From the IMG/VR virus record IMGVR_UViG_2974716774_000001, positions 1-61,736 of that record: 61,736 bases of DNA. One strand, given 5' to 3'. Origin of the DNA: Jacunavirus JC01. Its lineage: Duplodnaviria > Heunggongvirae > Uroviricota > Caudoviricetes > Casjensviridae. The position numbers and the translations under genes were made by a program. Each line of letters begins with the position of its first letter. Positions within the stretch are counted from its first letter, which is position 1. The notes under the pieces are model-generated. The model was given only the letters and a program-made list of their open reading frames with translations, was not told the origin of the DNA and did no database searches. Shown one piece after another: positions 45,314-47,931 of the stretch.

Positions 45314-46021
45314 TTACAGATCCTCCCACCTTCTGAACCACGCTTCCCGATCGAAATGCTTCTTCGCCGCCAGTGGCATCCCGATCTCCATCAGCTCTTC
45401 CCGGCGGACGTACTCTTCTGGCGCGCGGCTGGTGCTGAGGCCATCGAAGATAATCAGCGACGCGCCGAAGCCTGCGGTAGAGGCATCAGAAGACATGGCG
45501 TCTGGTCTGTACCAGCGAGGCAGGTCGAAAGCGATACGCCCTTTGATGTGGATAATCTTCGAGCATTCGCCGTCCGGCCACCAGCTCTCCGACGTCGCCG
45601 ACTTCACCAGCCAGAAAGATGGCGTGCCTTTCCGGTGCTCTTCGTACGCCTTCTTCATGATGTGCTGCATACCGGTGACGTGGGGCGCCCGACGGCCGCG
45701 CCCGGCGCGCTTGATGCTGTAAGGTGGATTGCCGAAGCATTTGACCGGCTCAGCGTCATCCGCACCCGCCAGCTCGGCACCTTTGCGCAGCGCTGCGCTC
45801 CAGTCCTGCGTCAGCGCGTTATCATCTGCCGTGAAGAACACCGGGCACTTCGCATTGGGGCCGTCACTGAACAGGTCGACGACGAACGGGCCATACAGCT
45901 CATCCAGCGCCAGGTAGAGCCAGTCCGGCGTACACCACTGGTCGCCTATCTCGTTCGGCAGGTGGGTCTGCTGGGCCTGCAGTTGCTGCAGAGCACGCAC
46001 GTACTCATTGCTCATCGGCAT
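45314..46021 (-). CDS. DNA N6-adenine methyltransferase (phage Dam-like)
   Basis: 235-aa ORF; NPPY catalytic motif (CFGNPPYS) and W-C-T-P-D-W segment. Confidence 0.65.
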   Translation of the reverse strand: MPMSNEYVRALQQLQAQQTHLPNEIGDQWCTPDWLYLALDELYGPFVVDLFSDGPNAKCPVFFTADDNALTQDWSAALRKGAELAGADDAEPVKCFGNPPYSIKRAGRGRRAPHVTGMQHIMKKAYEEHRKGTPSFWLVKSATSESWWPDGECSKIIHIKGRIAFDLPRWYRPDAMSSDASTAGFGASLIIFDGLSTSRAPEEYVRREELMEIGMPLAAKKHFDREAWFRRWEDL

Positions 46022-46490
46022 CCCCTTTGAGATACGGCGGGATGAATCCGTGTACCTGGTCTCCCTCGCGCAGCAGGCGGATCATCATTGCAAGCACGTC
46101 AACCATTTCCGACTCAACCCGGTGCCAGCTGCCTCGTCCTTCGAGATAATGGACGCATTCCTTTGTGACCTCGCCAGCCTCTTCCCCGAATTTGGTCAGC
46201 ACATAGTTGGGCTGGGGGAATTTCTGCATGGCTGCCTCAGCGCGCTCCATCGCGTCGTCCACCAGCTTGAGGAAGAGCTGCTGGCCTCTGTCCTTGTTGC
46301 TGGACAGCGCATGGAACTCATCGGTGTGGATGAAATAGTGCTTGATGGTTCCCGCGATATTAGGCGTGTGACGGCTGGTGTCGTGTCCAGCGTGGAAAGC
46401 CCAGCTGAAAAAGTCCAGCATCTGCTCGGTGGTAAAAGTCAGCGTCTTGCCTTTCTGCTCGCTGATAATTTCGTCAAATGTCTTGCTCAT
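46005..46490 (-). CDS. MazG-like nucleotide pyrophosphohydrolase (putative)
   Basis: About 161 aa; acidic motif pattern FGEEAGEVTKE...ESEMVDVLAMM resembles the EExxE...E..D metal-binding signature. Confidence 0.4.
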   Translation of the reverse strand: MSKTFDEIISEQKGKTLTFTTEQMLDFFSWAFHAGHDTSRHTPNIAGTIKHYFIHTDEFHALSSNKDRGQQLFLKLVDDAMERAEAAMQKFPQPNYVLTKFGEEAGEVTKECVHYLEGRGSWHRVESEMVDVLAMMIRLLREGDQVHGFIPPYLKGDADEQ

Positions 46491-46864
46491 TTGTATCCCC
46501 ATGATTTAACAATGTGAATCACCCGGCGGCACTGCTTGATGCTGAAGTGTCCAATGTGGCAGCGGCCCACGGAAATGCGCATGGCGCGGGCCAGCATCCT
46601 GTATGCAACGTCGCGGGAGTGCCTGCCATTGCGCCACACCTGGTCGAACAGGCGGTGCGCTTCGCTCCTGACGGCGCGCAGGTTTTTATTGGCCAGCGTT
46701 CCCATTGGGGCTTCTGTTCCCCTGTGGCAGCCGACATAGGCGTCACATGGCACGCAACGCCAGAACTTCTTGTCGGCGAGGTCTTCGCGGTGCGGATACA
46801 GGTCTGTGCCGCTGGCCAGCTCCGCAGGTTTTCCGCAGTATGTACATTTAACTTGAGATGGCAT
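46487..46864 (-). CDS. Zinc-finger protein (phage-associated CxxC...CxxC)
   Basis: 125-aa ORF; Cys pairs CTYCGKP and CVPCDAYVGCH. Confidence 0.45.
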   Translation of the reverse strand: MPSQVKCTYCGKPAELASGTDLYPHREDLADKKFWRCVPCDAYVGCHRGTEAPMGTLANKNLRAVRSEAHRLFDQVWRNGRHSRDVAYRMLARAMRISVGRCHIGHFSIKQCRRVIHIVKSWGYK

Positions 46865-46890
46865 TAAACTGCTCCCATGCTAATCGGTTT

Positions 46891-47931
46891 CTATAAATCG
46901 CTTCGTTCAGTCTCATAAGCTGCGATAACAGTTGCGCTGACGAACCGGGCAGCGATTTGAGGTACGATGGCGTTACCATATCCTTTGAGTAGCCCCACGC
47001 GGCCGGGTACCCCATGAGCCAGCGGGAATGTTCCGGGTTCAACGGGCCTGAAGCATCCATCCCGGCAGAAGAGCCAGTCAGCACTTCCCCAGTCTCCGTG
47101 ATCCGCACTGGGCAATCCGGCATAACCAGCTGCGCGGCAACGTCCAGTCTGTCCACTGACAGTTTGCCGTTGCGTATCCGTCCTCCCTGATAGCCGCCCT
47201 TGTGATCCGTCGCGCTCGATGTTGGCCATATCGCCAGCTTCGCCTCCCCGCCCAGCTTCAGGATTTTCCGGCCCGCCGATGTGCTGTAGTCGCTGCCCTT
47301 CGCATCGTTCGCTATCGCCGTATGCCAGCTGGTCATCTTCGCCTGCTGCGCCAGCGAGCTGCCCGTCATGTTGGCCGTGATGCCCGACCAACCGCGCCGC
47401 CCGTCCGAGTGACTCGGTGTCGTCCAGGCGAAAGGCCGCGAAAAATAATCGGTCGCGTTTGTGCGGAGCGCCGACGCCTGCAGCTGGCAGTACATGCGCT
47501 GCGCAGGCGTAACCTTCCTCTTCCAGCTCAATGAGTAAAGCGTCAAGCCAGTGGTCTTTTTTAACTGCCGCTGCAACCTGCTCGCCGAAGAGCATTGGAG
47601 GACGACACTCTGCGATGAGATCGAGAAGGGCCGGAGCCAAGTGACGTGAATCTCTTGCCCCGAGGCCTGCTCCAGCCACGCTGAAAGGCTGGCACGGAGG
47701 ACTACCCGTCCACAGCGGGAGATCGTCCGGGAGCCCGGCGAGTCGCAGGGCAAGCGGCCATCCGGCGATGCCTGCGAAGAAGTGGCACTGGGTGAAGCCA
47801 CGGAGGTCTTGTGGTCTGACATCTAAAATGCTCCGCGTGTCTACGATGCCCATCGGGATAAGCCCGGCGTCAATGAGAAGCCGCAGCCTTTCAGCTGCGA
47901 CCGGATCGTACTCGTTATAGTAATTCATCAC
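46891..47931 (-). CDS. DNA cytosine-5 methyltransferase, reading frame apparently interrupted by two frameshifts
   Basis: Frame A (46891-47931) carries motif I (FFAGIAGW), motif IV (GSPPCQPFSVAG), motif VIII (HKRDRLFF) and C-terminal motif X (GNAIVPQIAARF); the target-recognition region and motif IX (RWLMGYP) are in the overlapping +1 frame (ORF 46848-47822). Confidence 0.55.
   Translation of the reverse strand: MMNYYNEYDPVAAERLRLLIDAGLIPMGIVDTRSILDVRPQDLRGFTQCHFFAGIAGWPLALRLAGLPDDLPLWTGSPPCQPFSVAGAGLGARDSRHLAPALLDLIAECRPPMLFGEQVAAAVKKDHWLDALLIELEEEGYACAAHVLPAAGVGAPHKRDRLFFAAFRLDDTESLGRAARLVGHHGQHDGQLAGAAGEDDQLAYGDSERCEGQRLQHIGGPENPEAGRGGEAGDMANIERDGSQGRLSGRTDTQRQTVSGQTGRCRAAGYAGLPSADHGDWGSADWLFCRDGCFRPVEPGTFPLAHGVPGRVGLLKGYGNAIVPQIAARFVSATVIAAYETERSDL

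Follow-up and report, generated by a model that had tools for sequence, protein, structure and literature searches.

The genome of Cronobacter phage JC01 (Jacunavirus JC01), a chi-like phage of the Casjensviridae sequenced by Illumina HiSeq (PMC9759504), raises the question of how a C5-cytosine methyltransferase gene can have its conserved motifs in two reading frames. The gene lies on the minus strand of the stretch analyzed here (the window, 61,736 nt, to which all coordinates refer). A first-pass annotation, made from the letters alone, placed motifs I, IV, VI, VIII and X in one frame (frame A) and a target-recognition region and motif IX in the overlapping +1 frame (frame B). It offered three explanations: an inactivated gene, paired homopolymer sequencing errors, or expression that depends on frameshifting. 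The answer considered probable here is a fourth: a single stretch of DNA encodes two proteins, alpha in frame A and beta in frame B, which would form a heterodimeric C5-cytosine methyltransferase of the M.EcoHK31I type. The evidence favors what appear to be two separately initiated products rather than frameshifting.

The catalytic chain in frame A

Frame A is an unbroken open reading frame (ORF) at 46891..47931 on the minus strand, 346 amino acids (aa) when counted from a GTG. Since homologues start with MNYYNE, the start of alpha is probably the ATG at 47928, which shares a TGATG overlap with the stop of the upstream ORF. The motifs that the first-pass annotation had assigned to this frame are all present:

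46891..47928, minus strand: alpha ORF, the catalytic chain, 345 aa from the ATG at 47928, with the stop codon TAG at 46891-46893
47758..47781, minus strand: motif I, FFAGIAGW, in frame A only
47680..47706, minus strand: motif IV, GSPPCQPFS, with the catalytic Cys, in frame A only
47575-47589, minus strand: motif VI, FGEQV, in frame A
47440..47466, minus strand: motif VIII, PHKRDRLFF, containing a T5 run, in frame A only
46957..46983, minus strand: motif X, GYGNAIVPQ, invariant in homologues, in frame A only

Because frame A is a complete and uninterrupted ORF, motifs I to X can be read without any change of frame. Five annotated, intact phage methyltransferases (from RcPescado, SLP-22, K1ind2, KlebP_265 and SEN5) match the window by tblastn without a change of frame, starting at 47928 and ending at about 46870-46930, with 45–54% identity. 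Alignment to intact homologues had been proposed in the first-pass annotation as a check; since they align in one uninterrupted frame, JC01 carries no frameshift mutation and its gene is not disrupted. The PHROG family phrog_363 spans alpha residues 1-339 (E = 2e-72), PF00145 of Pfam matches only at aa 68-172 (E = 1e-19), and the score for TIGR00675 of NCBIfam is below its cut-off. The C-terminal stretch of frame A, ADWLFCRDGxFRPVEPGTFPLxxGxPxRVGxLRGYGNAIVPQ, is strongly conserved among homologues. The middle of alpha, about residues 165-280, is rich in Gly, Arg, Asp and Glu, much as the first-pass annotation had described a Gly- and Arg-rich region with no recognizable fold.

A second open frame within the alpha gene

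The second frame contains an ORF of nearly the same length, with its own candidate start signals:

46848..47822, minus strand: beta ORF of 324 aa in frame B (+1 with respect to alpha), lying within the alpha gene
47831..47834, minus strand: Shine-Dalgarno-like GGAG, 8 nt upstream of the beta ATG at 47820-47822

In JC01 beta ends 43 nt downstream of the stop of alpha and shares sequence with the 5' end of the next gene. Frame B carries AWTTPSHSD, AIWPTSSATDHKGG and LNPEHSRWLMGYPAAW, the last of which, at 46995-47042, is the candidate motif IX. The region resembling a target-recognition domain (TRD) and the canonical-looking motif IX were thus correctly located in the first-pass annotation, and beta matches phrog_1008 and phrog_31772 (E = 1e-37 and 3e-25). 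Pfam and NCBIfam searches of beta gave no match, and a sequence search against PDB chains gave just a chance match to LptG (E = 0.74). Three-frame translation of the five reference phages finds the +1 frame open in all of them, with the same motifs: GSxLYxLxWKxxxTPxGR...ASxxRT, repeated WPTPxAxDxKGG units, and the C-terminal motif LTASGxxLTGSxAGMxxxGxLNPxxSRWLMGxPxxWxxCAxxAMPSSRK. These features of frame B lie far beyond chance.

A search of IMG/VR for close relatives of the window's protein found none; relatives came from an alignment-based scan. The resulting set of 86 sequences comprises 80 IMG/VR loci, the window and the five GenBank phages, with homologues at about 45–55% amino acid identity. 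Frame A is open throughout in 86/86 and frame B over about 85–95% of the gene in 86/86; the third frame (C) has 4–25 stops per gene. A count over 81 homologues found both frames open in 81/81. The chance of an open frame was estimated by shuffling synonymous codons. Frame A is open through the middle of the gene (codons 166-280) in 86/86, the chance given the frame-B protein being about 0.10 per sequence; at codons 41-165 frame B is open in 84/86, where the chance given the frame-A protein is about 0.19 per sequence. Since the sequences are phylogenetically related, these per-sequence probabilities cannot simply be multiplied; the set contains about 56 lineages below 72% identity. The excess of open frames over chance is overwhelming.

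An ATG is found in frame B of every homologue, the first one lying at alpha codons 15-60 in 92% (median codon 36). A Shine-Dalgarno-like motif precedes this first beta ATG in 55% of the 86 homologues; among control ATG triplets from these genes the figure is 12%. Matches to the beta profile typically begin about 57 residues into the protein, which fits the conserved length of a leader; in JC01 this leader, roughly 57 aa, is unconstrained.

At its other end, JC01 beta has a C-terminal tail past alpha motif X, LxxQLxRLxEAIFxNRxAxE (46848-46940), which it shares with the chi-like SLP-22, P0002 and P0013. AlphaFold2 models the JC01 tail as a long helix with a predicted local distance difference test (pLDDT) score of 88–96. 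Most other members of the beta family stop at ...PSSRK.

Purifying selection passes from one frame to the other

Differences per site were counted in 60 close pairs (70–99% amino acid identity) from nucleotide alignments made without frame information. With a +1 overlap, a change at the third position of an A codon (A3, = B2) is silent in A and always alters B, and a change at the first position (A1, = B3) alters A and, for the most part, leaves the B protein as it was; A2 is B1. The rates at A1/A2/A3 along alpha are as follows:

Codons 1-105:.050/.039/.191, selection on A
Codons 106-150:.084/.049/.108, selection on both
Codons 151-165 (motif VIII):.058/.007/.215, selection on A
Codons 166-280:.233/.087/.076, selection on B
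Codons 281-315:.081/.040/.060, selection on both
Codons 316-330 (motif X):.041/.009/.131, selection on A

Selection thus runs along the gene in the order A, A+B, A, B, A+B, A, the third-position excess tracking the constrained frame, and alignments of the 86 sequences guided by frame A or by frame B agree with the pattern from the 60 pairs. Since selection switches between frames along the gene, the functional assignment of the first-pass annotation was right: frame A for motifs I to VIII, frame B for the TRD and motif IX, and frame A again for motif X. That annotation took conservation of the frame-A middle as protein to be what would speak against its view. On this point the outcome is mixed: the middle is kept open in homologues, but its sequence is not conserved.

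Two zones are constrained in both frames:

47482..47616, minus strand: first dual-constrained zone, alpha codons 106-150, with low rates in all phases
46987..47091, minus strand: second dual-constrained zone, ultra-conserved as DNA and including a G4 run

The first encodes motif VI (FGEQV) and WLD..LE..GY in alpha, and the helix SxxLxSRLxxxL and hairpin GSxLYxLxWKxxxTPxGR in beta. The second encodes ADWLFCRDGxFRPVEPGTFPLxxGxPxRVG in alpha and LTGSxAGMxxSGxLNPxxSRWLMGxPxxW in beta. A 102-nt stretch here, 46991-47092, recurs with 90–92% nucleotide identity in the methylase gene carried by 22 Rhodobacter capsulatus phages, which by megablast share no other DNA with JC01; the identity results from the double coding constraint. 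It is very likely, from all of these observations, that both frames encode real proteins. A gene in which selection passes from frame to frame and back is a natural system for the study of overlapping-gene evolution.

Structure prediction and remote homology

The alpha profile aligns to residues 3-172 of M.HhaI; the FFAGIAGW segment aligns to residues 2-33, and the profile also aligns to residues 74-174. In JC01 and all homologues the N-terminus of alpha, YYNExDPxAAxWL...GxVDxRSIxDV (residues 2-39, 47812-47928), aligns to M.HhaI 35-73, that is, to motifs II-III. This segment precedes motif I, and the canonical slot between motifs I and IV is empty. In the AlphaFold2 model a strand-helix-strand unit comes before the strand of motif I, at pLDDT 85–92. 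The order of motifs in alpha therefore looks permuted, II-III-I-IV, and the chain as a whole reads II-III, I, IV, VI, VIII, an unconstrained spacer, a IX-like segment, and X.

For the complex, alpha was fused to beta through a linker and modelled by AlphaFold2 on a locus-paired alignment. Alpha 1-169 and the motif X helix (323-343) are confident, and alpha 170-318 has pLDDT below 50. A canonical enzyme has a folded TRD between motifs VIII and IX of the same chain; in alpha the corresponding stretch is this unconserved one of pLDDT below 50. The helix and hairpin of beta are confidently modelled and are its most confident elements; when beta is modelled alone, with mean pLDDT 65 and a predicted template modelling score (pTM) of 0.25, only local elements are confident. 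In a Foldseek search with the fusion model the top matches were M.HaeIII and M.HhaI over ~170–190 columns, covering the catalytic core only. The best local match of the beta profile on M.HhaI is motif IX, residues 271-291, although it is weak (E = 0.063).

The modular middle of beta

Between the two zones of double constraint lies the most variable part of the gene:

47092..47439, minus strand: middle region, with three WPTP-type modules in beta and an open, unconserved spacer rich in Gly, Arg, Asp and Glu in alpha

The modules of JC01 beta are AWTTPSHSD..., WHTAIANDAKG... and WPTSSATDHKGG... When 82 beta sequences were cut at W-x-[TS]-x anchors, 244 modules were obtained, which fall into at least 32 recurring types and 43 singletons. 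There are 70 different module architectures among the 82 sequences, with about 12 modules in the longest relatives. Even very distant sequences share module types, and the motifs of beta are conserved at the level of amino acids. In alpha the spacer from motif VIII to motif IX varies from 61 to 212 residues with the number of beta modules. By analogy with known methyltransferases, the WPTP modules may be tandem target-recognition domains.

Comparison with known methyltransferases

M.EcoHK31I, from E. coli HK31, is a natural alpha/beta heterodimeric C5-methyltransferase in the account given in PMC2836561, which cites Lee, Kam & Shaw 1995. Motifs I-VIII and X belong to its alpha chain and motif IX to its beta chain, and activity requires the two together; beta can do without its first 42 residues, and its translation can begin at internal Met codons (PMC2836561). 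The JC01 gene appears to have the same architecture as that account describes: beta lies on the same strand as alpha, in another frame, inside the alpha gene, an arrangement found in 86/86 homologues, and the unconstrained leader of JC01 beta recalls the dispensable N-terminus. It differs from M.EcoHK31I in that beta nearly equals alpha in length and extends beyond the end of the alpha ORF, that selection places the whole variable region between motifs VIII and IX in beta, and that the enzyme is an orphan, outside any restriction-modification pair. Searches of plasmids and E. coli for M.EcoHK31I found only prophage or phage-plasmid copies.

Other enzymes share parts of this design. M.EaeI, a relative of M.EcoHK31I, is built like it. 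M.AquI of Synechococcus (Agmenellum) is a C5-methyltransferase whose alpha and beta chains come from two ORFs, split in the variable region; the ORFs are consecutive with a short overlap, and beta carries motifs IX and X. The JC01 enzyme is likewise split between motifs VIII and IX, and in M.AquI both chains are needed. Unlike M.AquI, JC01 has its beta ORF inside that of alpha, and alpha retains motif X. The Bacillus phage enzymes M.SPRI, M.Phi3TI and M.H2I are multispecific, with tandem exchangeable TRDs between motifs VIII and IX. Like these, the JC01 enzyme is a phage-borne orphan C5-methyltransferase with a tandem array of short modules that differ in number and order between phages. The Bacillus phage enzymes are single polypeptides in one frame, whereas in JC01 the modules lie in beta. 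With M.HhaI and M.HaeIII, alpha shares a catalytic core with PCQ, (E/Q)xV, (Q/H)xRxR and GNxV, the Foldseek and HMM matches spanning about 170–190 residues; it departs from them in having motifs II-III before motif I and in being a catalytic chain without a folded TRD.

A probable two-subunit enzyme

On the interpretation proposed here, alpha would be the catalytic large domain. It would hold motifs I, IV, VI and VIII, for S-adenosylmethionine binding and catalysis, together with motif X as the closing helix, its parts joined by a long spacer that is unconstrained in sequence and probably disordered. Beta would be initiated at its own Shine-Dalgarno sequence and ATG within the alpha gene, and would consist of a leader that can be dispensed with, the conserved helix and hairpin, a variable WPTP array that is probably the part for target recognition, and motif IX (LNPxxSRWLMGxPxxW). 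It would dock on alpha and so provide the small domain that alpha is without, and methylation of the phage DNA by the enzyme would protect it from host restriction. We infer, from sequence, that alpha and beta associate and that beta sets the specificity.

A broader version of this proposal is more tentative, and possible rather than probable. According to it, a family of phage and prophage orphan C5-methyltransferases, with at least 32,000 beta clusters, would be obligately dual-coded. The recognition domain would be a separate subunit in the +1 frame, made up of between 2 and about 12 WPTP modules in shuffled tandem order and motif IX. Gain, loss and exchange of modules would re-program or multiply specificities, and alpha, a permuted chain, would only have to stay open across this region.

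Several observations weigh against the two-subunit interpretation. Neither a confident alpha/beta interface nor a folded WPTP region was obtained in the AlphaFold2 models, and for this reason the model does not tell which frame provides motif IX. The overlapping segment of alpha, DGKxRPVEPGTFPLxxGxP, aligns to M.HhaI 265-315 with a match as weak as that of beta (E = 0.055). A motif IX may thus be present in alpha itself, and the segments of both chains may matter. A variable number of repeat modules is unusual for a TRD of single specificity, and in the account of M.EcoHK31I the TRD is assigned to alpha, not beta (PMC2836561). The likeness to that enzyme is one of layout, and in JC01 and its relatives both polypeptides are predicted from sequence.

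Alternative explanations

One alternative is that beta is a genuine overprinted gene with some other role, such as anti-defense or DNA binding, and that alpha works alone with its own IX-like segment and no classical TRD. The constraint in frame A on that segment is in its favor, as are its alignment to M.HhaI, the lack of sequence matches for beta in Pfam, NCBIfam or PDB, and the failure of AlphaFold2 to dock beta on alpha with confidence. It remains unlikely when set against the following. The best site for the beta profile, at LNPxxSRWLMGYPxxW, is motif IX of M.HhaI, and beta lies beneath an annotated methyltransferase gene in 211/211 phage records searched. An alpha working alone would have a disordered, unconserved stretch where every known C5-methyltransferase carries its DNA-recognition domain. 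The precedent of M.EcoHK31I also opposes a role for beta other than that of a subunit.

One canonical chain would result from programmed frameshifting if ribosomes shifted +1 past motif VIII and -1 ahead of motif X. The spliced frames do resemble a canonical I-VIII/TRD/IX/X enzyme, the A-B-A pattern of selection is compatible with a frameshifted single chain, and homopolymers lie near the junctions in the window, at the positions given in the first-pass annotation (in the minus-strand sense, T5 at 47441-47445 and G4 at 46993-46996). These runs, however, are not conserved. In JC01 T5 is part of TTA-TTT-TTC, which codes for Leu-Phe-Phe; in other phages the Phe pair is written TTC-TTT or is missing altogether. 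Runs past motif VIII reach at most 2–4 nt in 74/86 homologues, and no conserved slippery heptamer or homopolymer was found at either junction among the homologues. With a double frameshift there would be no need for frame A to stay open through the middle in all 86 sequences, or for frame B to be open, with its own ATG and Shine-Dalgarno sequence, about 130 codons before the point where the shift is supposed to occur, and the constraint on codons 106-150 in both frames would be unexplained. We know of no precedent for two efficient shifts in opposite directions in one gene. Expression by frameshifting, as the first-pass annotation had suggested, is therefore quite improbable, and two-subunit coding by separate initiation is preferred.

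Frame B might also be untranslated, its conservation arising from constraint on DNA or RNA or from GC-rich composition. GC-rich genes often show long spurious open frames, and the motif IX region is ultra-conserved as DNA. The probability of this explanation is nevertheless very small. The third frame is interrupted by 4–25 stops in each gene, and the pattern of codon positions in the middle is the textbook one for a protein in frame B, with.233 at the third position compared with.087 and.076. The motifs are conserved at the amino acid level, with module types recurring in very distant sequences, and Shine-Dalgarno-like motifs are enriched ahead of the beta ATG.

A pseudogene can be dismissed, as can an assembly artefact with two compensating indels: motifs are split between frames, and the Prokaryotic Genome Annotation Pipeline (PGAP) calls an E. 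coli prophage homologue two partial pseudogene fragments, but that homologue is an intact 389-aa ORF, frame A is unbroken in the window and its homologues (with single-frame, end-to-end alignment to five methyltransferases and phrog_363, and the same layout in 86/86), purifying selection is strong in both frames, and paired homopolymer errors are made unlikely by Illumina sequencing and by the same layout in independent genomes without those homopolymers.

Distribution and annotation of beta

Homologues of beta with E < 1e-5 number 1,237, essentially none of which, among the matches listed, has a Pfam domain; at 50% identity there are 32,580 related cluster representatives (E ≤ 1e-3). A tblastn search with beta alone found 211 GenBank phage records, all from phages of Proteobacteria, and in each the match lies beneath an annotated C5-methyltransferase gene. 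The nested two-frame design known from M.EcoHK31I turns out, to judge from these matches, to be very widespread in phages. A literature search for any description of a phage-wide nested ORF found none. Novelty may lie in how large the family is, in the location of the entire variable region within beta, in the shuffling of modules, and in systematic mis-annotation.

For JC01, GenBank annotates frame B only, as QJI52275.1 "hypothetical protein", which in RefSeq is YP_009998599.1 "DNA methyltransferase". The frame-A protein of JC01 has no entry in the protein collection searched. Since the public record has beta only, the catalytic chain of the JC01 methyltransferase is missing from it. Elsewhere RefSeq/PGAP usually annotates only alpha. 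The nested ORF of phage K1ind2 is labelled "Mte8-like protein" in GenBank, which is purely an annotation label in K1 phage genomes. In a lambdoid prophage of E. coli ECCTRSRTH03 (L086:3487-4656) the homologue has been divided by PGAP into two "incomplete" pseudogene fragments; its frame A is the intact 389-aa ORF mentioned above, and its frame B is open too. This homologue adjoins an MT-A70 methyltransferase and exo/bet/gam genes.

There is no Pfam model for the beta family, which has tens of thousands of clusters, and predictions of phage methylation, anti-restriction or REBASE-style specificity from such genomes use half of the enzyme. M.EcoHK31I has already been used in the engineering of split, targetable cytosine methyltransferases (PMC2836561); should the WPTP modules prove to act in recognition, a modular toolkit for that purpose would be at hand.

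Several candidates for a fusion of beta to a catalytic domain were considered and rejected. P0055 is plainly a frameshifted hybrid without motifs VI and VIII. The extra length of the longest beta relatives consists of more modules. In P0021, a bacterial contig, the beta frame reads through into a Dam domain. Actinophage methyltransferases with a WPTP/LNP region in frame with the core were dropped, none being found at E < 1e-5 by tblastn with beta alone.

Neighboring genes and variants of the locus

Two genes lie downstream of the C5-methyltransferase gene in JC01:

46487-46864, minus strand: DUF3268 zinc-finger protein, directly downstream, its start at 46864 overlapped by the beta tail
45314-46021, minus strand: Dam-type N6-adenine methyltransferase (PF05869, E = 4e-30), about 0.8 kb downstream

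In P0050 and P0251 an ORF for an HNH endonuclease is inserted in the beta frame at a point equivalent to about 46960-46990 of the window. The insertion point falls in ultra-conserved DNA, after motif IX and ahead of the segment where beta overlaps alpha motif X, and the flanking beta sequence is partly duplicated (DLCAPTAE ... DACVPTAT). The insertion is possibly a homing element, with the dual-coding stretch as its target. In the Klebsiella phage relatives L018-L020, frame B continues 430–442 nt beyond the alpha stop into endonuclease-VII/HNH-like sequence (HVDHCH...GLLCRGCN), and alpha has an extra insertion inside its IX-like segment.

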